Of a DNA stretch of 64,000 bases, positions 10,384 to 52,472 are shown piece after piece; within the stretch, counting starts at the first letter, position 1, and each line of letters begins with the position of its first letter. The notes beneath the pieces were generated by a model. That model saw only the letters and a list, made by a program, of their open reading frames with translations. It had not been told where the DNA came from and ran no database searches. A program made the translations under genes and the position numbers. This stretch comes from Acidobacteriota bacterium. GTDB lineage: Bacteria; Acidobacteriota; UBA6911; RPQK01; JAJDTT01. The stretch lies in the NCBI GenBank assembly GCA_965263035.1, contig OZ253580.1, positions 2,016,001-2,080,000 on the forward strand. Reading direction: 5' to 3'.

Positions 10384-11808
10384 ATGAATCACTCGAAAGT
10401 ATTGGTCACGAGCCTCCTGGCACTGCTTGCCATGCCCATCCTGCAGTCGGGCCATTCACCGGTCCAGATCGGAAGTGAACGCCAACTGTTCGTGGATCGT
10501 CTGCTGATCGACCGCATGGACGGAGTCCGATTGAAGATGCACTCTCCCGTTCGCAGGGAGGCCGCCCTGCGTATGGAGCATCCGTGGGAAGAACGGGGTG
10601 TTTCCTACATGGTGACGTTCAAGGACGGAGACCGCTTTCGGGCCTGGTACCGCGCCGACGCCGCCACCCATCGGACCGCCTACGCCGAGAGCAGAGACGG
10701 CATCACCTGGGAGAAACCCATGATCGGCCCGATCCCGTTCGGAGACCACAAGCAGACCAACCTGGTCTGGGAAGCCGAGGACAGAGCCGGCAACCTCTCG
10801 GTTCTCAAGGACCCGAATCCGGATGTGCCTCCCGACGAAAGGTACAAGGGGATCGTCCGTGGCCGGGGCCAGATCACGGCGCTGGTCTCGGAGGATGGCA
10901 TTCATTGGCGGCCGTTCCGGGAGAAGCCCCTGATCGACAACCACCCGGTCGACTCCCACAACATCCTGATCTGGGATCCGCATCTGGAGCGGTACGCCAT
11001 CTACTTCCGGGGCATCCGAAAGGTCCCCGGCGTGGCGATCGACAACACCTCCTGGAAGACTCTGGGAGTCCGCTGGGTGCGGCGCTCGTTGTCCCGAGAC
11101 TTTCGGAGCTGGTCGGAGCCGCGGCTCATCGAATCGGGAAGTTCCCCGATCGAACAGTTCTACACCAACGACACCGTCGTCTACGAACGGGCTCCCACCT
11201 GGTTTCTCATGTTCCCTTCCCGCTTCGTGGTGGAGCGGGTACCGGTTCCCGACTGGCCCGCCGGCTCCGGCGTCAACGACATCGTGCTGCTCTCCAGCCG
11301 GGACGGTCTCAACTGGGACCGGACCTTCCTGGAGGCCTTTCTGCGCCCGGGGCCCGATCCCAACACCTGGCACGAACGGGCGCTGTACATGGAACACGGA
11401 ATCCTGCAGACGGGTCCCCGGGAGCTGTCCATGTACGCCATGCACAACTGGAGAACGGACGACACTCACATCCGCCGGCTCAGTCTGCGAGTGGACGGGT
11501 TCGCCTCGGTTCATGGCGACTACGCCGGAGGTGTCCTGATCACCCGCCCGCTGGTCTTCGAGGGGAGTGAACTGGAGATCAACTTTGCCACCTCCGCGGT
11601 GGGCAGCCTCCGTTTCGAAATTCGGGACGGAAGCAACAATCCGCTTCCGGGCTACGGAATGCAGGACTGCGACGAGATCTACGGGGACGAGATCGACCGG
11701 GTCGTGAAGTGGAAGGGCAGCACGGATGTCTCCTCGCTGACGGGAAAGCCGGTCCGCCTCCACATCCGGTTGCGGGACGCCGACCTCTATTCCTTCCGCT
11801 TCCGGTAG
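10384..11808 (+). CDS. Beta-propeller glycosidase-like protein, paralog 3
   Basis: Start MNHSKVLV (signal peptide); RQLFVDR, AESRDGITWEKP, DSHN, LRVDGFAS; the ORF-track N-terminal extension is antisense shadow. Confidence 0.78.
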   Translation: MNHSKVLVTSLLALLAMPILQSGHSPVQIGSERQLFVDRLLIDRMDGVRLKMHSPVRREAALRMEHPWEERGVSYMVTFKDGDRFRAWYRADAATHRTAYAESRDGITWEKPMIGPIPFGDHKQTNLVWEAEDRAGNLSVLKDPNPDVPPDERYKGIVRGRGQITALVSEDGIHWRPFREKPLIDNHPVDSHNILIWDPHLERYAIYFRGIRKVPGVAIDNTSWKTLGVRWVRRSLSRDFRSWSEPRLIESGSSPIEQFYTNDTVVYERAPTWFLMFPSRFVVERVPVPDWPAGSGVNDIVLLSSRDGLNWDRTFLEAFLRPGPDPNTWHERALYMEHGILQTGPRELSMYAMHNWRTDDTHIRRLSLRVDGFASVHGDYAGGVLITRPLVFEGSELEINFATSAVGSLRFEIRDGSNNPLPGYGMQDCDEIYGDEIDRVVKWKGSTDVSSLTGKPVRLHIRLRDADLYSFRFR

Positions 11809-11967
11809 GAGTCTGCGCGGTAGGAATGATCGTAGCGAGAAAGCGGGGAATCGAGGCCAGATTTTCTCGATTTTGAGGTGCATAGTCGTTCTATTCGCCG
11901 AGAAATCGGGGAAATATGGACCGATTCTACCGCTTTCGCAGTAGATCAATTTCTGCCGCGCAGGCTC
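11809..11967. mobile_element. 159-bp MITE, copy 1
   Basis: TIRs GAGTCTGCGCGGTAGGAAT / ATTTCTGCCGCGCAGGCTC; near-identical to 45173-45331; begins immediately after a TAG stop. Confidence 0.85.
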
Positions 11968-11988
11968 CTGGGCGGGAATCGGACCCGG

Positions 11989-19478: not shown

Positions 19479-21848
19479 ATGTTTATTCCTCTGCTTCCTA
19501 TTCCTCGCCTATTGGTTGTCGCCGGAATGGCTGCCTTCGGATTGCTTGCGCTCGCGTTCGCTCAGGTCATGGAGGGTCGTCTGACGGTCCGAATCTCGGA
19601 CCCCGGCGGAGGGGCGGTCGCGGCAAGTGTTCGGCTCGTCGGACGGAGCCCGGAATTCGTCGCTGCAGCGACGGCCGATGAAACGGGCCACGCGGTCATC
19701 AAGCGCTTGCCGCCGAGCCTGTATCAGTTGATCGTACGGCATGCCGGCTTCGAAGAATTCTCCATTCAAGTGGAGATCCGCTCCGCCGTCCCCCAGTCCG
19801 TGCAAGTCGTCCTGCAAGTCGGGACGCTCCATGAGGAAGTGACGGTCGAGAACTCGGCGCCTCTCCTCGACCCCTCGCAACCCTCGAACCCCATGCAGGT
19901 GGGCCGGCTGAAACTGAATCGCACACCGGGGACGACTTTGGGCCGGAGCACCATCGACGTCGTGACCACCCTGCCCGGCTGGCTGCTGGAAGCCAACGCC
20001 GTCCTCCATCCGCGCGGTTCGGAATACGACACCCAATACGTCATCGACGGGATGCCACTCTACGACAACCGTTCCATTGCGTTCGCTCCGGGATTCGAAA
20101 ACGACGAGTTCGAAGCGGTGAACGTTCTCACGGCCGGGATCCCGGCCGAATACGGGCGTCGTTTGGGTGGAGTCATCGCGCTCGACACACGCCGGGCCGA
20201 TGGGCGCGGACACCACACGGCTCTGGATCTTCAGGGAGGCGGGCACGGAACCTATTTCGGTTCCATGTCTCATCAGTACGCGGCGGATCGCACCACCGTT
20301 TCGGTCGGTCTGCAAGTCGGACGGACGGACCGTTACCTGGACCCGCCGTCCCTCGAGAACTTCACCAACAAAGCCAGTTCGGGCGGTTTCAATGCCCGTC
20401 TGGCACACGACATCTCCCCTCGCGACCAGTTGACGGTCTATCTCCGATACCACCGGTCCGGGTTTCTCGTGCCCAACGACCTGGAGCAACAGGCGGCGGG
20501 ACAACGGCAGGATCGGCAAATGGGTGAACTCGCGGGACAGGTCCACTACCAGAAGACCATTTCCGGGCGATCCGTGGGCTCTGTCCGGGGAATGGTCCGC
20601 GAGCTTTCCGGCAGGCTCTGGAGCAACCCGCTGGCGACTCCGGTCCATGTCCAACAAGACCGCGGTTTCCGCGAAGCCGCGCTCGTCGGCGACCTCACCG
20701 TCGACCATGGCTGGTACACGGTGAAGTTCGGCGGCGATGTCCGGGTCAACGACATTCGTGAGATGTTTCAACTAGCGCGTCCGGGGAAGCTGACCCATCC
20801 CGTCCTGAGCTTCCACGACCAGCGGCGTAGCACGGAGCTCGGGCTGTTCGTTCAGAATCAGGTTCGCCTCGGAAACTTCGTTACCAACCTCGGAGTCCGA
20901 TTAGACGGTTACAGACTGCTGGTAGACGATACGGCCGTCAGCCCCAGGGTCGCCCTCAGTTACTACGTCCCGAAAGCCGAAATCCAGCTGTTCGCCTCCT
21001 ACGATCGCATCTTCCAACCTCCTCCCATGGAGAATCTGTTGTTGTCGAGCGGGGCGCCGGCACTGGGAATCGACGTCGTGGAGGGCAACCTCGCGGTGCC
21101 CTCGAGCCGAGCCAACTTCTTCGAGGTCGGGCTTCGAAAATCCGTGGGCGACGCTCTGCGCCTGGACCTGAAACACTTCTGGCGTGCCTTCCAAAACTTC
21201 ATCGATGACGACGTTTTTCTGAACACGGGCATCTCGTTCCCCATCACCTTCGACACCGCCCGCATCGAGGGGACCGAAATCCGGCTCGAGCTGCCGCGCT
21301 GGAGACGAGTCTCCTCGTTCGTCAGCTACTCCAACATGCTGGGCCGCGCGACTTCGCCCGTGACGGGAGGATTGTTCATCGAGGGCGGAGAGGCGGAAGA
21401 GTTGCGAAACGTCGTCGTGCGGTTTCCCATCAGTCAGGATCAGCGCAACACGGTCGCGGCCCGGCTTCTATACGAACTCCACCGGCGAGTCTGGATCGGA
21501 TTAGGGGCGCGCTACGGCAGTGGTTTGCCGGTCGAGTTGGCCGATGATGACGACGATTCCGATGAGGACGCCGCCGTGCCGGAACACGACTCTGATGAAG
21601 ACAGCTCCATCCCGCCCGAGATTCTGGGCCGGGTGAATTTTCGGCGCGCCAGAATCCGGCCCAATTTCAGCCTGGACTTCTCCGTCGGCGCCCGGCTCTG
21701 GGAGGTCGACTCACAATCGGTCTCGGTTCAGTTCGACCTGCGCAACGCCACCGACCAGCTCAACGTGATCAACTTCAACGGGCTCTTCTCGGGCACCGCC
21801 CTGGCTCCTGGCCGGCAGGCCATCCTGCGACTGAAGATGCGATTCTGA
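19479..21848 (+). CDS. TonB-dependent receptor (shorter acidobacterial type), TBDR3
   Basis: CarboxypepD_reg N-domain; LHPRGSE, YVIDG, IPAEYGRRLGGVI; C-terminal LRLKMRF. Confidence 0.85.
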   Translation: MFIPLLPIPRLLVVAGMAAFGLLALAFAQVMEGRLTVRISDPGGGAVAASVRLVGRSPEFVAAATADETGHAVIKRLPPSLYQLIVRHAGFEEFSIQVEIRSAVPQSVQVVLQVGTLHEEVTVENSAPLLDPSQPSNPMQVGRLKLNRTPGTTLGRSTIDVVTTLPGWLLEANAVLHPRGSEYDTQYVIDGMPLYDNRSIAFAPGFENDEFEAVNVLTAGIPAEYGRRLGGVIALDTRRADGRGHHTALDLQGGGHGTYFGSMSHQYAADRTTVSVGLQVGRTDRYLDPPSLENFTNKASSGGFNARLAHDISPRDQLTVYLRYHRSGFLVPNDLEQQAAGQRQDRQMGELAGQVHYQKTISGRSVGSVRGMVRELSGRLWSNPLATPVHVQQDRGFREAALVGDLTVDHGWYTVKFGGDVRVNDIREMFQLARPGKLTHPVLSFHDQRRSTELGLFVQNQVRLGNFVTNLGVRLDGYRLLVDDTAVSPRVALSYYVPKAEIQLFASYDRIFQPPPMENLLLSSGAPALGIDVVEGNLAVPSSRANFFEVGLRKSVGDALRLDLKHFWRAFQNFIDDDVFLNTGISFPITFDTARIEGTEIRLELPRWRRVSSFVSYSNMLGRATSPVTGGLFIEGGEAEELRNVVVRFPISQDQRNTVAARLLYELHRRVWIGLGARYGSGLPVELADDDDDSDEDAAVPEHDSDEDSSIPPEILGRVNFRRARIRPNFSLDFSVGARLWEVDSQSVSVQFDLRNATDQLNVINFNGLFSGTALAPGRQAILRLKMRF

Positions 21849-22004
21849 GGGTGCCCTCTTTCGTCTCTTTGGGAACTCTCCCACCGGCCGCTGGCCGGCG
21901 CAATCCTGGCAGAAAAGGGGATATCTGGAAGCGGCGCCGTTTCAGTCTCCGGTTCCGGGTCGGTGTTGAAGAGGGGGACAAGAATGTCCCTGTACCCTTC
22001 ACGA

Positions 22005-22190
22005 GTACCCTTTAAGGGACTTCACCCACGGTGGGTGAAGAGGGCCACCTGGCCGGGAGCGACCCTAATGTCCCTGTGCCCTCGGAGCACCTGGAGGGGA
22101 TTCGTGCCCCGGCCGGTAGCCGCGATGGAGACCCGGTGGGAAGTTGGCGCCTCTGAGCACCAGTACAGGAACCGATCCGAATCGCGGCGG
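22005..22190 (+). ncRNA. IS110 bridge RNA (5' hairpin, target-binding loop, donor-binding loop); ends approximate
   Basis: Hairpin CTTCACCCAC/GTGGGTGAAG; stem GGCCGGG/CCCGGCC enclosing AATGTCCC and GGAGGGGA; stem GCCGCGAT/ATCGCGGC enclosing GGGAAGT and GTACAGG; these guides match the target and the circle junction. Confidence 0.8.
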
Positions 22191-22223
22191 CCCGACGTCC
22201 ATTTAAACACTGGGAGGGTCGGG

Positions 22224-23471
22224 ATGAAACAGAGTCAATGGTTTGTGGGAGTCGATTGGGCGTCCCAGGCGCACCAGGTCTGCGTGCTGGACACGCAAGG
22301 CACCTGTCGGGGACAGCGGAGCTTCCCGCACAGCGGTTCGGGCCTGGCCCAGATGGCCGACTGGATTCTGCAGCAGACGGGAACGAGTGCACAGGCCGTC
22401 TCGGTGGCGATTGAAGTGAACCACGGTCCGGTGGTGGATTTCCTGATGGAGCGGCGTTTTGCCGTCTATGCCATCAATCCGACGCAGCTGGATCGATTCC
22501 GCGACCGCTTCTCGCCGGCCGGAGCCAAGGATGACCGCCGCGATGCCCGGGTGCTGGCCGACGCGCTGAGAACCGACGGCCATCGCTTGCGCCGTCTCAA
22601 ACCCGTCGCTTCTGAGGTGATCCAGCTGCGCGAGTCCTCACGACTGGGTGACCAGTTGACCCGCGAGCGGACCCGGCTTCTCAACCGCCTCCGCGATCAA
22701 CTCTGGCGCTACTATCCGCAGTTCCTGGACCTCAGCGAGAATCTCGCCGAGCCCTGGGTGCTGCAAGTGTGGAAGCTGGCCCCGACGCCGGACGACGCCC
22801 AGAAGCTGCGCCCGAGCCGGGTCGCCAAGGTGTTGAAAGACCATCGGATCCGGCGAATCGACGCCCGCGAAGTCCTGCGTCGCTTGCGGGTTCCGGCCTT
22901 CCCCGTCGCCGCCGGCACCACCGAGGCGGCGGTGGCTCACGTCGCCAGCCTCGCGGAGCGCCTCGCCCTGGTGCAGAGCCAGCTCAAGGACACCGGTCGT
23001 CAGGTCGAGCGTCTGATCCGGGCTTGGGACCAGCGGTGCGAGTCGGCGCCGGGGTCCCCAGGACCGAGGCGGGATGCGGCGATCCTCGCCTCCCTGCCCG
23101 GGGTCGGCCGAATCGTCCTCGCCACTCTGCTCTCGGAAGCCTCCGATCCGTTGCGCCGCAGAGATTACGCCGCCTTGCGTTGTCTGTGCGGGGTCGCCCC
23201 CGTGACCCGGCGCTCCGGCAAACACACCCTTGTCGTCCGCCGCCAAGCCGTTCATCCTCGGCTGCGCGAGGCGACCTACCACTGGGCCCGCGTGGCCGTG
23301 CAACACGACCCGATCAGCCGGGCCAAGTACGATGCCCTGCGCGAGCGGGGTCACGGCCATGCCCGGGCCCTGCGATCCGTTGCGGACCGTCTGCTGGCGG
23401 TGGCCTGCGCCATGTTGCGAGACCAGACCCTGTTCGATCCGAATCATGCGAGACAGCGCCGTGCCGCTTGA
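22224..23471 (+). CDS. IS110 family transposase/recombinase (DEDD RuvC-like + Tnp domain)
   Basis: FVGVDWA, VAIE, AKDDRRDA, LASLPGVG, CGVAPVTRRSG; RBS GGGAGG before ATG 22224. Confidence 0.95.
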   Translation: MKQSQWFVGVDWASQAHQVCVLDTQGTCRGQRSFPHSGSGLAQMADWILQQTGTSAQAVSVAIEVNHGPVVDFLMERRFAVYAINPTQLDRFRDRFSPAGAKDDRRDARVLADALRTDGHRLRRLKPVASEVIQLRESSRLGDQLTRERTRLLNRLRDQLWRYYPQFLDLSENLAEPWVLQVWKLAPTPDDAQKLRPSRVAKVLKDHRIRRIDAREVLRRLRVPAFPVAAGTTEAAVAHVASLAERLALVQSQLKDTGRQVERLIRAWDQRCESAPGSPGPRRDAAILASLPGVGRIVLATLLSEASDPLRRRDYAALRCLCGVAPVTRRSGKHTLVVRRQAVHPRLREATYHWARVAVQHDPISRAKYDALRERGHGHARALRSVADRLLAVACAMLRDQTLFDPNHARQRRAA

Positions 23472-23617
23472 TCCCGATCCGGGCCGAGGTCCACTCCAGG
23501 CTTCGCCCGTGTGCGGCCGCTGCAGGAGCTCGAGGGTGAGGCCCACGGGGCGTCCATCCGGTACCAAATGGGCTCCGTGCCGAGAAGGGTCCAGGAGGTC
23601 TATGGCCAGCGAAAAGG

Positions 23618-23684
23618 CGACCCCCAGCGGGAGGCCCGGCGAAGGGAGCGTAGCGACCAGAGCGGGGCCTCCCGCTGGGGGTCG
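23618..23684. repeat. Perfect 20-bp inverted repeat in the IS110 right end
   Basis: CGACCCCCAGCGGGAGGCCC ... GGGCCTCCCGCTGGGGGTCG with a 27-nt loop. Confidence 0.85.
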
Positions 23685-23775
23685 ATTCCCCCTTGACAAA
23701 GGGTGGGAAGTCCCCTCCCACTTCGATCCCCACGTTGGTCGACAGAACACCTCCCAAATTTAGAAAAATGGATAT

Positions 23776-25062
23776 ATGGAGCGGACAGAGGCCGCAGGAA
23801 GGGTCCGTCCACGGGAGAAGATTCTGCTCACCGGGTCCACCGGATACATCGGCGGCCGCTTGCTTCGCCGGCTCGAAGCCGACTCCTTTCCGGTTCGGTG
23901 CCTGGTCCGGCGTCCGGAAGTGCTCGGACCGCAGGTCGCGGCCACGACCGAGGTGGCCGGAGGAGACCTGCTCAAACCGGAAACGCTGCCGACGGCCATG
24001 CGGGGGATCACCACCGCCTACTATTTGGTTCATTCCATGGCCTCCATCATCATCGGCTCGGGGAGCCTGTCCTTCGAGATGATCCGGTCTCTGGTGGAGA
24101 AGCTGCCCGTCATGCTGACGCCCCGCTGGGTCCACACCATGGCGCAGCCGATCGCCGTGGAAGACGTCATCGAATACCTGCTCGCCGCGCTCGAGGCCCC
24201 TCTCGAAGGAAGCCGGGTCAATGAGATCGGGGGATCCGAACGGGCCTCCTATGCCGATATCATGGCGGAGTACGCCCGCCAGCGAGGCCTGCGTCGAAAG
24301 ATGATTTCCGTTCCCGTTCTCTTGCCCCGCCTGTCCCGCCTGTGGCTGGGTCTGATCACGCCCATCTACGCCCGGGCCGGCCGCCAACTGGTGGAGAGTC
24401 TCCGCAACGAAACCGTAGTCGACAGCGCCGCGGCCTCGGAGATCTTCAGTATCCGGCCTCGCGGTCTGGCCCCGGCGATCCGCCGCGCACTGGTGAACGA
24501 AGATCGCGAGTTCGCGGAGACGCGTTGGTCCGATGCCGTCTCCTCCCTGGGTTCCACGTCCTTGCGATCCGGGGTCCGCTATGGGACCCGCATCGTCGAT
24601 TCGCGGGTTCGTTTCGTTCCGGTCCCGGCCCCACAGGCGTTCTTGCCAATCCGGCGAATCGGCGGGGGATCGGGATGGTACGGATCGAACTGGCTCTGGA
24701 GAGTTCGGGGCGCGCTGGATCTGCTGGCCGGTGGCCCCGGCATGCGGCGTGGACGAAAGGATGCCGAACATCCCGCGATTGGAGAGACCATTGATTTCTG
24801 GAGGGTCGAGGCGTACGAAGAGAACCGGCTGCTCCGCCTCAAGGCGGAGATGCGGCTCCCCGGCCGCGCCTGGCTCCAATTCGAGGTCGAACCTCACGGC
24901 TCGGGATCGTGGGTCCGGCAGACCGCCGAGTTCGGCCCCTTGGGATTCCTGGGTCTGGCCTACTGGTACAGCCTGTACCCAGTGCACCACATCATCTTTG
25001 CACGGTTGCTCCGGGGAATCGCCTTCCTGGCAGTCCGGGAAACATGGGAGCCGAGGGGATGA
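23776..25062 (+). CDS. YbjT-like atypical SDR + DUF2867 protein with an apparent internal in-frame deletion
   Basis: ILLTGSTGYIG; AYYLVHSM joined directly to ASIIIGSGSLSFE; DFWRVE, LRLKAEMRLPGRAWL, GLAYWY. Confidence 0.75.
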   Translation: MERTEAAGRVRPREKILLTGSTGYIGGRLLRRLEADSFPVRCLVRRPEVLGPQVAATTEVAGGDLLKPETLPTAMRGITTAYYLVHSMASIIIGSGSLSFEMIRSLVEKLPVMLTPRWVHTMAQPIAVEDVIEYLLAALEAPLEGSRVNEIGGSERASYADIMAEYARQRGLRRKMISVPVLLPRLSRLWLGLITPIYARAGRQLVESLRNETVVDSAAASEIFSIRPRGLAPAIRRALVNEDREFAETRWSDAVSSLGSTSLRSGVRYGTRIVDSRVRFVPVPAPQAFLPIRRIGGGSGWYGSNWLWRVRGALDLLAGGPGMRRGRKDAEHPAIGETIDFWRVEAYEENRLLRLKAEMRLPGRAWLQFEVEPHGSGSWVRQTAEFGPLGFLGLAYWYSLYPVHHIIFARLLRGIAFLAVRETWEPRG

Positions 25063-45087: not shown

Positions 45088-45172
45088 TCCGGCCGTCCGG
45101 GCGTCAGGCCTGAGTCCGGAAGACCGGCCGTGGAACCGCTTGCTCCCCTGCCGCATCCATGACCTCCGCTAG

Positions 45173-45331
45173 GAGTCTGCGCGGTAGAAATGATCGTAGC
45201 GAGACAGTGGGGAATCGAGGCCAGATTTTCCCGATTTGGAGGTGCATAGTTGTTCTATTCGCCGAGAAATCGAGGAAATATGGACCGATTCTACCGCTTT
45301 CGCAGTAGATCCATTTCTGCCGCGCAGGCTC
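45173..45331. mobile_element. 159-bp MITE, copy 2, flanked by CTAG on both sides
   Basis: CTAG|GAGTCTGC...GCAGGCTC|CTAG; the right CTAG contains the stop of the minus-strand TPR gene. Confidence 0.9.
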
Positions 45332-46093
45332 CTAGCGCGTGCCCAGACCGTACAGGTTCAACAACTCGATGAATTCCTGACGGTCACGAAATCGGTCGAA
45401 CGCCTGCTCTGCGGCCAGCCGCTCCTGGTCCAGGAACCCGACCGCCAACGCCTTCGCCAGATAATTCAAGCATTGCGCCAAGTTCTCCATCTCGGCAAAG
45501 AGGCGCGCCAAGTTGTAGTGCGTTTCCGGATCCAATCCCCTTGGATCCGAATAGGTGACACGGGTTCCGCTTCTCTGGTCGAAGGCCTGAGGATCCAGGT
45601 CCATGGCTTTGCGGTAGGCTCGACGGGCCAAGTCGTAGTGACCCCACAACATTTGACCATATCCCAGATTGACGTAGAAGAACGACTGGGGATCGATGGC
45701 AATCGCTTGTTCGAAGGAGCGAGCCGCCTTCTCGTATTGTCGGTTCGACAGCAGGGCGATTCCCAGCGTGTTGTGGGCCGGGGCGTACCGCGGATCGAGT
45801 CTGATGGCGTGTTCCGCCGCCTTTCGTCCCTGCCAAAAGCGTCCGGTCCGACAATACGCGATCGCCAGTTTGTTGAAGATGGCCTCGTGATACGGATTCA
45901 AGGTCGTCGCCTCAAGGTACTTGAGGATGGCGAGATGATCCTTTCCTTCCTCCAACATCTGGTCGGCCTCTCCCATGAGGCGGTAGGAGGCGAGGACGCT
46001 CTCGCGAGGCACCGGGAGCTTCGTGATCCGGGAATGACCGCAGCCGAGGAGGAACCCCGTGAGGAGAACGATCGCGGTTCTCGAGGCCATCAT
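45332..46093 (-). CDS. TPR lipoprotein
   Basis: Lipobox LLGC; TPRs; THYNLARLFA. Confidence 0.8.
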   Translation of the reverse strand: MMASRTAIVLLTGFLLGCGHSRITKLPVPRESVLASYRLMGEADQMLEEGKDHLAILKYLEATTLNPYHEAIFNKLAIAYCRTGRFWQGRKAAEHAIRLDPRYAPAHNTLGIALLSNRQYEKAARSFEQAIAIDPQSFFYVNLGYGQMLWGHYDLARRAYRKAMDLDPQAFDQRSGTRVTYSDPRGLDPETHYNLARLFAEMENLAQCLNYLAKALAVGFLDQERLAAEQAFDRFRDRQEFIELLNLYGLGTR

Positions 46094-51843: not shown

Positions 51844-51909
51844 GCCCGGGAGTCGTTCGCTCCCTTAACAAGATCGGGGCTGACCCACACCTCCGCCAAC
51901 GGCTGCTAG

Positions 51910-52004
51910 GAGTCTGCGCGGTAGAAATGATCGTAGCGAGAAAGTGGGAAATCTGGGCCGATTCTACCGCTTTCGCAGTAGATCAATTTCTGCGGCGCAG
52001 GCTC
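51910..52004. mobile_element. MITE copy 3 (95 bp, internal deletion), flanked by CTAG on both sides
   Basis: Same TIRs; the right CTAG contains the stop of the VOC gene. Confidence 0.88.
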
Positions 52005-52472
52005 CTAGTGCCAGTACTGCAGCTCGACGATGTTGTCCTCGGGGTCGGTCATGTAGATCAGGGTGAGACGGCCCTCTTCCGGGATGTCCAGGGTCGTGAT
52101 GCTCCCCAGATCCGCACCTCCCCACTCCAGGACCTGAAGCCGCTTCTCTTCCAGGTCGTCCACCTGGAACGCGATGTGGGCGAAGCCGGGCCGGTTGAGA
52201 GCCGGGACCGGCCGTCGGGCGTTCTCGTCGAATTGAAAGATTTCCAGGGTGGGGCCGCCCGCGCCAAATCCGGGTAGCTTCAGATGAACGCCCTCCATGT
52301 GGACTCCCTTGAGTCCGGTGAGGGCATCGATGTGTGCGCCCCGCCGATCCCGTTCGATCCCGACCGGACGGCAGTCGAAAACTTCCACGTAGAATTTCAC
52401 CATCGCTCTCCAGTCGGCGGCGACCAGATTGGTGTGAGCGTACCGGATGCCCCGGCGTCGTCTTTCAGGCAT
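52005..52472 (-). CDS. VOC/glyoxalase family protein
   Basis: YAHTNL, FYVEVF, LEIFQF, HIAFQVDD, TDPEDNIVEL. Confidence 0.85.
   Translation of the reverse strand: MPERRRRGIRYAHTNLVAADWRAMVKFYVEVFDCRPVGIERDRRGAHIDALTGLKGVHMEGVHLKLPGFGAGGPTLEIFQFDENARRPVPALNRPGFAHIAFQVDDLEEKRLQVLEWGGADLGSITTLDIPEEGRLTLIYMTDPEDNIVELQYWH

Follow-up and report, generated by a model that had tools for sequence, protein, structure and literature searches.

Does the transposase gene that lies beside a REP-like hairpin in this Acidobacteriota genome belong to an intact insertion sequence with its own guide RNA, and at which bases would such an element recombine? We addressed both questions in the window, that is, the whole 64,000-nt stretch of DNA analysed here, whose numbering is used throughout. 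Our reading, to which we assign a probability of about 0.9, is that 21991-23713 on the forward strand is an intact IS110-group insertion sequence moving by bridge-RNA-guided recombination. It draws on what is observed: the anatomy of the element, the matches of guides to flanks and to element ends, their covariation, a fold that is conserved, and the presence in the genome of several copies whose genes are intact and keep the catalytic residues. IS110 bridge-RNA elements are already known, and this copy stands out mainly by a crossover at CC, not CT. The features are collected in Table 1.

Table 1. Features of the element and its flanks (L, left; R, right; T, target; D, donor; a final G, guide).
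Feature	Position	Strand	Details
REP-like target hairpin	21973-21990	+	left arm GGGGGACA (21973-21980), loop AGAA, right arm TGTCCC
LT	21983-21988	+	AATGTC, left of core
Core CC, left copy	21989-21990	+	
IS110-group insertion sequence	21991-23713	+	1723 bp with one core copy counted; no terminal inverted repeats
Left non-coding end	21991-22223	+	233 nt; RD = TGTAC (21991-21995)
-10-like TACCCT	21993-21998	+	left end
Subterminal repeat arms	21994-21999, 23699-23704	+	ACCCTT and AAGGGT, 6 bp
Bridge RNA scaffold, as modelled	about 22019-22193	+	covariance model R1
Bridge RNA 5' stem-loop	22020-22040	+	9 bp; 9/9 pairs compensatory (helix 1)
Bridge RNA closing stem	22042-22046 with 22189-22193	+	
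Target-binding loop module	22049-22116	+	stem GGCCGGG 22051-22057 / CCCGGCC 22108-22114
LTG AAUGUC-CC-U	22067-22075	+	six LT positions, two core positions, then the clade-common U
GTGC/GCAC hairpin	22076-22090	+	within target loop
RTG GGAGG-GG	22093-22099	+	reverse complement CC-CCTCC = 23712-23718
Putative handshake dinucleotide AU	22100-22101	+	after RTG; GGAGGGGA runs to 22100
Donor-binding loop module	22119-22188	+	stem GCCGCGAT 22119-22126 / ATCGCGGC 22181-22188
LDG GGGAAGU, then UG at core positions	22138-22146	+	identical to right end 23705-23711
RDG GUACA-GG	22163-22169	+	reverse complement CC-TGTAC = 21989-21995; handshake AA to 22171
Recombinase gene	22224-23471	+	415 aa; GGAGG eight bases upstream
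Right-end hairpin	23619-23683	+	perfect 19-bp stem, just 5' of the -35-like hexamer
-35-like TTGACA	23693-23698	+	right end
LD GGGAAGT	23705-23711	+	right element end
Core CC, right copy	23712-23713	+	
RT CCTCC	23714-23718	+	host DNA right of element

Recombinase and crossover core

The gene product matches PF01548, the N-terminal DEDD RuvC-like domain, over the full profile (5.5e-36, 1-155 of 155), PF02371, the C-terminal Tnp domain (8.3e-18), and NCBIfam NF033542, the curated equivalog of IS110 family RNA-guided transposases (187.4 bits at a cut-off of 140 bits, profile 1-342 of 343). Alignment with IS621 (8wt6) by phmmer (E 8.8e-8) placed D11, D104, D107 and S331 on D11, D102, D105 and S241 of IS621; E60 probably corresponds to E64, which lies in the motif AIEV, where the phmmer alignment is off by three residues. 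All five residues and the 415-aa frame are kept in each of the four full copies in the genome. These matches support the predicted assignment of the recombinase as an IS110-family RNA-guided transposase (DEDD/Ser).

The first-pass annotation had drawn the element as 21991-23714, with GTCCC as the core shared by both sides and a four-C site restored by its removal. The right junction reads GGGAAGT-CCCC-TCC (23705-23718), and CC stands at both junctions of all four full genomic copies with no other target duplication. Among relatives, CC lies directly before the RD 5-mer (TGTAC/TGTAT) in 83 of 83 left junctions and directly after the LD 7-mer in 65 of 67 right junctions. The predicted recombination core is the dinucleotide CC, not GTCCC, which is shared only by accident, a C run and GT happening to stand on both sides. 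With this core the element is 21991-23713, one base less than drawn before, the predicted circle junction holds two Cs and not three, and the REP hairpin of the empty site most likely had five Cs; since the left arm at the target has five Gs, five Cs give back a perfect 8-bp stem. The earlier description of the core as C-rich rather than CT holds, with CC in place of GTCCC. A CT core one base rightward (...C-CT-GTAC) was rejected, as the left donor guide ends at GGGAAGT and the L003-type left flanks misfit. Our literature search for a bridge recombinase with a CC core found none; CC cores may already be reported all the same, and natural core diversity is probably covered in the supplementary tables of PMC11208160.

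That the same element recombines as first drawn, by a crossover over the 5-nt GTCCC or over three Cs, with a four-C empty site and a three-C circle junction, is very improbable. In this copy and in L002, GTCCC does occur on both sides of the element, and the genome has seven four-C sites (AATGTCCCCTCC). Against a GTCCC core, the left flanks of L003, L004 and L005 end in G-CC, so that CC alone is common with the right junction, and relatives with non-C-rich flanks have an overlap of plainly two bases (for example, left ACAACT-CC-TGTAC and right GGGAAGT-CC-ACAGG). Moreover, the RTG and the RDG both have exactly GG as their last two bases in 33 of 33 distinct guide sets. This regularity, together with the CC at every left junction, also speaks against the four-C restored site, in which the five Gs of the left arm would lack the five Cs needed for the perfect stem.

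Predicted bridge RNA and its guides

The structure of covariance model R1 was drawn by hand after the IS621 layout and then tested on distant relatives. R1 matched 5' of the gene in 85 of 85 sources, and all 80 fetched relatives have the same fold. In the R1 alignment, which was fitted to the model and is hence biased towards the structure, compensatory changes occur in 34 of 44 scaffold pairs; 91.3% of scaffold cells are paired, compared with 77.2% in shuffles and 32-48% with partners slid, and none of 500 shuffles reached the observed pairing and compensatory values. Folding of the left end as a single sequence gave z = -1.73, with 11 of 200 shuffles equally stable; as this is not clearly above shuffles, the case for structure rests on covariation. 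An Rfam scan of 21800-23900 returned six matches with E up to 1, none at gathering score and none within the left end, and there is consequently no curated family for comparison. An RNAalifold run on the ten closest RNAs (52 pairs, 0 compensatory changes, guides paired with one another) was dropped and replaced because the ten sequences were too alike (93% mean column identity).

The guides of this copy match its own flanks and ends. AATGTCCC at 22067-22074 is identical to the flank at 21983-21990, and the LDG match with the right end extends to 10 nt (GGTGGGAAGT, 22135-22144). UG at the LDG core positions mismatches the core CC, and the donor-loop handshake AA matches just one of the last two LT bases. 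Relative to the DNA, both loops are sense on the 5' side and antisense on the 3' side. When the left end minus its first 10 nt was dinucleotide-shuffled 20,000 times, the individual frequencies of the four guide motifs were 0.4%, 14%, 2.9% and 1.3%; at least two appeared together in 0.67% of shuffles, and all four in none. A check of the window sequence found every guide, stem and hairpin string of the first-pass annotation at its position. Its bispecific layout was borne out, with two internal loops and the strand sense defined for IS621 (PMC11208160), as was its donor loop, in which GGGAAGT equals the right end and GTACAGG is antisense to the core plus the left end.

The target loop appears to occur in two registers. 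In most clade members, this copy included, the core occupies LTG positions 7-8 and is followed by a U identical to the first base of the left end; in L003, L004, L005, L012-L017 and L062 it occupies positions 8-9. The U is possibly a bottom-strand 'handshake'. An IS621-like 7+2 LTG, under which this copy seemed one C short, was rejected, since relatives show 6+2 plus one base as the common register.

Covariation of guides with flanks and ends

The genome contains four full copies, at 100, 99, 85 and 83% identity, and one left-end fragment (L005, 154 nt). The full copies stop at the same bases, and the two pairs that they form are 83-85% alike. The left target guide exists in three genomic versions, each matching its own left flank: AAUGUCCC with flank AATGTCCC in L001 and L002, AAAGCCGC with flank AAAGCCGC in L003 and L004, and AAAGUCGC with flank AAAGTCGC in L005. 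Comparison of these sequences confirms that one genome holds what appear to be sister copies retargeted to different REP subfamilies.

A genome-wide census placed the flank hairpin in a REP family whose members mostly have five Gs and six Cs, with TCC next to them. Of the four five-C sites two are occupied, whereas all 22 six-C sites are free; this offers a natural experiment on the reading of the spacing between the two target guides. For this genome, the insertion is an ordinary one into an intergenic REP hairpin.

The suggested test of guide-flank covariation across copies was positive within the genome and also across the 80 relatives. The own RTG was perfect against the 5-nt right flank in 29 of 41 unique insertions (mismatched pairings, 2/451) and the own LTG against the left flank in 18 of 55 (other guides, 18/1485). 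On the donor side, the own LDG 7-mer was found exactly 3' of the gene in 67 of 85 elements and the exact own RD 5-mer in 83 of 85; the four LDG and two RDG variants each follow the ends of their own elements, GUACA or AUACA in the RDG going with TGTAC or TGTAT left ends, respectively. CC fills the LTG core positions in 26 of 33 guide sets. The LDG core positions vary (UU, CU, UC, CA, UG and similar), with CC in 1/33. The dinucleotide 3' of the RTG is AC in 24/33 sets, compared with an invariant GT in LD, and is AU here. L031 and L075, considered as tandem copies with a natural right-end/left-end junction, were rejected: just TGTAC(C) follows the core, and the remainder is unrelated.

The clade, with 33 distinct guide sets observed, takes in Acidobacteriota, Vicinamibacterales, Bryobacterales, Rhodothermales and Paracoccaceae, among others. 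We tentatively suggest, though we hold it to be somewhat less than an even chance, that the clade is a natural CC-core bridge-recombinase lineage with a two-register target loop, and that one genome has been naturally retargeted among three REP subfamilies together with a register shift. The recombinase may be reprogrammable, as the first-pass annotation called it, given that its guides vary in nature while the scaffold stays constant.

Proposed cycle and known systems

Folding of 23590-23714 in the right end gave -79.4 kcal/mol (z = -6.56), and none of 200 shuffles was as stable. In a circle with a CC junction, TTGACA would lie 17 nt from TACCCT, which agrees with TATAAT at 3/6 positions and is under the scan threshold; the promoter scan of the integrated element detected no complete sigma-70-like promoter. 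A hexamer starting with TTG or TTT stands at equal distance from the end in 65 of the 67 relatives with a right end found, and TANNNT is present at the left end in 73 of 83. RNA-library contigs span 21973-22183 (X17) and 22018-22187 (X18, a variant), but they say nothing on transcription or RNA ends, because DNA is possible in those libraries and a DNA-run contig has identical ends; stretches of the element that these contigs leave uncovered likewise speak neither for nor against it. Loose contig ends at 21990 that continue with CCCTCC were rejected as an empty locus, as they are other REP copies (41-nt matches, 3-4 differences).

After the life cycle of IS621, we infer RNA production, circle formation, use of the promoter and present-day activity for this element. 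It would excise as a circle in which ...GGGAAGT of the right end is followed by a single CC and then by TGTAC... of the left end, and the TTGACA and TACCCT thereby brought together would drive transcription of the left end. The transcript would fold into the 5' stem-loop and the two internal-loop modules, the donor loop pairing through GGGAAGU with the right end and through GUACA-GG with the core and left end, and the DEDD/Ser recombinase would swap strands at CC.

It is unlikely that this bridge-RNA IS110 member is no longer active here and that its guide matches are a fossil record of earlier insertions. Such a reading would fit the low number of full copies, just four in two diverged pairs, the one copy cut down to its 154-nt left end, the two perfect five-C targets still free, and the finding of no circle or empty-site joint in the contigs of four public runs, contigs being prone to drop rare forms. 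It sits poorly with four genes that are open over 415 aa with their catalytic residues and with guides, ends and scaffold that are intact; furthermore, L001 and L002 lie in separate REP copies although just 10 of 1724 bases differ between them, which points to fairly recent movement. A function of the left-end structure mainly as a cis-acting 5' leader controlling recombinase expression, with flank similarity as a by-product, is barely credible. The RNA does lie immediately 5' of the gene, and the 5' stem-loop of the IS621 leader is reported to reduce downstream expression (10.64898/2026.03.19.712850). A leader would leave unexplained why loops and flanks change together while the stems stay constant, and why both loops are sense on their 5' and antisense on their 3' sides. 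Bridge-RNA-guided recombination of an intact element remains our preferred reading.

This element confirms that raw sequence suffices for reading bridge-RNA guides. For bridge-recombinase engineering, enzymes unbound to CT might be drawn from the well-populated natural CC-core clade, with its 5+2 RTG and its left-guide register that can shift; if true, a CC-core lineage with two registers would widen the set of usable cores.

Like IS621 of Escherichia coli, an IS110-group element (PMC11208160, PMC11208158), this one combines a DEDD RuvC-like domain and a Tnp domain with catalytic Ser, a predicted left-end bridge RNA with target- and donor-binding internal loops, a dinucleotide core, a REP target, a -35-like hexamer in the right end with a -10-like one in the left end, and a dinucleotide 3' of the RTG able to pair, by the handshake logic, with the final two bases of LD. 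It differs in its core (CC, versus CT in IS621), its distantly similar protein (415 aa versus 326-328), its RTG (5+2 nt versus 2+2) and its LTG (in this copy and most of its clade 6+2, with one more U ahead of the hairpin, versus 7+2); unlike those of IS621, its two ends are equally long, the right one measuring about 240 nt. Inclusion of the core in all four guide pairings is stated for IS621, whereas here the LDG core positions fail; this is not a criterion of the family.

ISPpu10 of Pseudomonas putida (10.64898/2026.03.19.712850) is likewise an IS110 bridge-RNA element inserting into REP, and its left target is the 3' arm of the target-DNA hairpin, as it is here, where AATGTC is part of that arm; it has a CT core and an RNA described as lacking a 5' stem-loop, whereas this element has CC and a well-supported 9-bp 5' stem-loop. 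The enterobacterial IS622/ISCro4 (10.1101/2025.05.14.653916; PDB 9t56 chain against the recombinase, E 1.3e-7) belongs to the same family and has the same guide layout, including handshake guides, but uses a CT (or programmed GT) core and 14-nt recognition (7+2+5). The IS1111 group (PMC11208160) shares the recombinase family and the bispecific-RNA principle, but carries its seekRNA/bridge RNA at the right end, with subterminal inverted repeats that measure 7-17 bp; here the left end holds all four guides, and the subterminal repeat has 6 bp. An unsystematic look at the right end, with its long hairpin, brought out no guide-like match. Finally, the second core base is C in this clade, whereas T was kept in the core-change experiments considered here.

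The element and its bridge RNA

Between a long gene ending at 21848 and a gene starting at 23776 lies an element whose single gene (Table) encodes a recombinase matching PF01548 over the entire profile (5.5e-36) and PF02371 (8.3e-18). The protein scores 187 bits (cut-off 140) against NF033542, the NCBI equivalog 'IS110 family RNA-guided transposase', and matches the solved structures of IS621 (8wt6, E 8.8e-8) and ISCro4 (9t56). Its D11, D104, D107 and S331 align with IS621 D11, D102, D105 and S241, and E64 (motif AIEV) is likely the counterpart of IS621 E60, where the pairwise alignment is off by three residues. By each testable family criterion the element belongs to the IS110 group, in agreement with the first-pass annotation, which had proposed an IS110 element with a bispecific guide layout and whose sequence strings were all found at their coordinates.

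Features of the element and of repeats in the genome (window coordinates unless a locus is named)
Feature	Position	Description
IS110-group element	21991-23713	1.7 kb, single gene
Recombinase gene	22224-23471	415 aa; PF01548 + PF02371 matches
-35-like TTGACA	23693-23698	right end
-10-like TACCCT	21993-21998	left end
Right-end hairpin	23619-23683	perfect, 19 bp; z -6.56
Subterminal inverted repeat ACCCTT/AAGGGT	21994-21999 and 23699-23704	6 bp; flanks donor sequences
L005, solo left end	L005:1501-1700 (G000:C1:2558570-2558723 + following bases)	154 nt
REP form 1		GGGGGACA-loop-TGTCCCCC-CTCC; 37 copies with five Gs, six Cs, TCC
REP form 2		GGGCGAC-AAGAAA-GTCGCCC-CTCC; 33 copies of AAAGTCGCCCCTCC
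REP form 3		GCCGCC form
~170-nt repeat, unrelated to the IS	11801-11974, 45165-45338, 51905-52011	three copies, 92-95% identity

When the left end was shuffled 20,000 times preserving dinucleotides, the four guide motifs appeared singly in 0.4%, 14%, 2.9% and 1.3% of the shuffles, at least two in 0.67% and all four in none. A covariance model of the RNA scaffold (R1), built from the ten nearest RNAs and a structure patterned on the IS621 layout, matched upstream of the gene in 85 of the 85 sources searched (E 1e-47 to 1e-6). Across an alignment of 51 distinct rows, standard pairs filled 91.3% of cells, compared with 77.2% in shuffles and 32-48% with slid partners; 34 of 44 pairs had changed on both sides, and none of 500 shuffles reached any of the five fold measures. 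Fitting the rows to the model favours the structure, yet the fold is credible given the effect size and the slid controls. Support is poor for the innermost helix of the donor-loop stem, a run of three pairs in which 41% of cells pair.

Guides and junctions in copies and relatives

On the single 6.2-Mb contig of the host genome there are four full copies, namely L001 (the copy studied), L002 (99%), L003 (85%) and L004 (83%), plus the left-end fragment L005, and R1 matched at exactly these five places and nowhere else. Each of the four genes has an uninterrupted 415-aa frame and keeps the catalytic residues; 10 of 1724 bases separate L001 from L002, and the two occupy different REP copies. The decisive point is that the target loop changes with the flank: L001 and L002 pair loop AAUGUCCC with flank AATGTCCC, L003 and L004 have AAAGCCGC in both places, and L005 combines AAAGUCGC with AAAGTCGC. 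The guide/flank covariation that the first-pass annotation had looked to other copies for was recovered as three versions of the left target guide (LTG), each with a fitting left flank of its own, while the right target guide (RTG, GGAGGGG), the donor guides, both element ends and the right junction GGGAAGT-CCCC-TCC are constant in all copies.

In L005 the left end stops at GTGTCC, inside the donor-loop hairpin, and CCTCC-CAATC comes next, resembling the right target; an internal deletion probably joined the RNA gene to the right-end core where both have GTCC. The L005 left guide AAAGUCG fits AAAGTCGCCCCTCC, the REP form with the most copies (33 free), and no full copy with this guide is present in the genome. 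The same contig (G000:C1) bears 13 more PF01548 matches (e.g. 1745998-1746423 and 6067676-6068101; open frames ~280-322 aa), which represent a second, more numerous IS110-family element; R1 gave no match at these loci.

A scan in which each species was represented by one genome yielded 297 encoded relatives, of which the best 80 were fetched (58-82% protein identity). These 80 came from MAGs labelled Acidobacteriota, Vicinamibacterales, Bryobacterales, Rhodothermales, Longimicrobiales, Paracoccaceae and others, with one isolate, an Azospirillum. Altogether 85 elements gave 33 distinct guide sets. Every RTG among them consists of five variable bases and a closing GG, and the right donor guide reads GUACA-GG or AUACA-GG. 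Upstream of the RNA, 83 of 85 elements carry the left-end 5-mer predicted from their own right donor guide, in all 83 directly after CC; downstream of the gene, 67 of 85 carry the right-end 7-mer predicted from their own left donor guide, and CC comes next in 65 of these. At 29 of 41 unique insertions the own RTG, read as its reverse complement, equalled the five bases past the right CC, compared with 2 of 451 for other elements' guides, and left flanks matched the own LTG in 18 of 55 (other elements' guides, 18 of 1485), the weaker matches belonging mainly to elements aimed at long C runs, with register slippage. In two relatives (L031:2917-2945 and L075:3091-3120), the right flank past the core is TGTAC(C) followed by unrelated DNA, resembling the own left end rather than the RTG-predicted sequence; these look like insertions at donor-like sites, as reported for IS621 off-target events.

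Core, guide register and REP targets

Because CC stands at the left and right junctions of relatives and the RTG ends in GG, the junction sequences indicate that the recombination core is CC. Of the C-rich rather than CT core proposed earlier, the non-CT character holds, and GTCCC gives way to CC plus chance identity of adjoining bases at the L001 junctions. A two-base core makes the empty site of L001 a hairpin of five Gs, loop and five Cs, then TCC, with a perfect 8-bp stem. The most frequent L001-type REP in the genome has six Cs (AATGTCCCCCCTCC, 22 copies); five-C and four-C sites have two free and seven copies, respectively. Both L001-type insertions are in five-C sites (2 of 4 occupied vs 0 of 22 six-C sites; hypergeometric P = 6/325, ~0.02, a hand calculation on very small numbers), a preference that fits a fixed spacing between the left and right target guides. 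The REP family is large, its members often stand in arrays with alternating orientation, and all forms end in CCTCC (e.g. 21973-21990).

CC occupies LTG positions 7-8 in 26 of 33 guide sets, with U at position 9 in 20 of 33, and the core lies at 7-8 in unambiguous cases, such as ACAACU-CC-U with flank ACAACT-CC-TGTAC, and likewise in L001. Seven left-target bases are matched and the core is at 8-9 in L003, L004, L005, L012-L017 (from two other Acidobacteriota MAGs) and L062, as it is in IS621 and in the donor loop of the L001 RNA; the genome holds both registers of one loop, 7-8 in L001 and 8-9 in L003, L004 and L005. Immediately 3' of the RTG, 24 of 33 guide sets have the dinucleotide AC, complementary to the invariant GT ending the right element end, and such complementarity is required by the IS621 handshake model as excerpted from PMC11208158. 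In L001 this dinucleotide is AU, which gives one pair plus a G-U wobble. The donor-loop handshake bases, AA in L001 and GA in most relatives, partially fit the last left-target bases.

Element ends and comparison with known systems

A consensus scan found no sigma-70-like promoter in the integrated element. A circle with a CC junction would put TTGACA 17 nt from TACCCT; a TTG- or TTT-starting hexamer stands at equal distance from the end in 65 of 67 relatives with the right end located, and 73 of 83 left ends carry TANNNT. This arrangement, with its weak -10, agrees with a predicted junction promoter of the kind that IS110 elements reconstitute across the junction (PMC11208160, in excerpt). 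Just upstream of the -35-like TTGACA is the right-end hairpin (Table), with no T run after it; relatives have different hairpins at roughly the same place, and the structure is possibly an insulator against read-through. Both arms of the subterminal repeat are altered together in the relative L025 (ACCTGT/ACAGGT), and others keep just ACC/GGT, as read by eye.

Public RNA-library contigs cover the L002 left junction plus RNA (run X17, 21973-22183) and a variant RNA (run X18, record 23, 22018-22187), cover that does not demonstrate transcription; no joints on the element were seen in the public-run contigs, the only form searched. The X18 variant has the same scaffold with 13 differences and 4 indels and the left guide AAAGUCCCC (L016 type), so a relative with another target guide was present in another sample.

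A literature search for 'bridge recombinase' together with 'CC core' found no paper, although supplementary tables may list natural cores; the experimental non-CT cores described in the excerpt of PMC11208160 changed the first base only (AT, GT, TT). Relative to IS621, the element has a CC core, a longer RTG, an LTG of 6+2(+1) and a left donor guide without a match to the core. It is a readable instance of a known system, predicted to operate like IS621 and ISPpu10.
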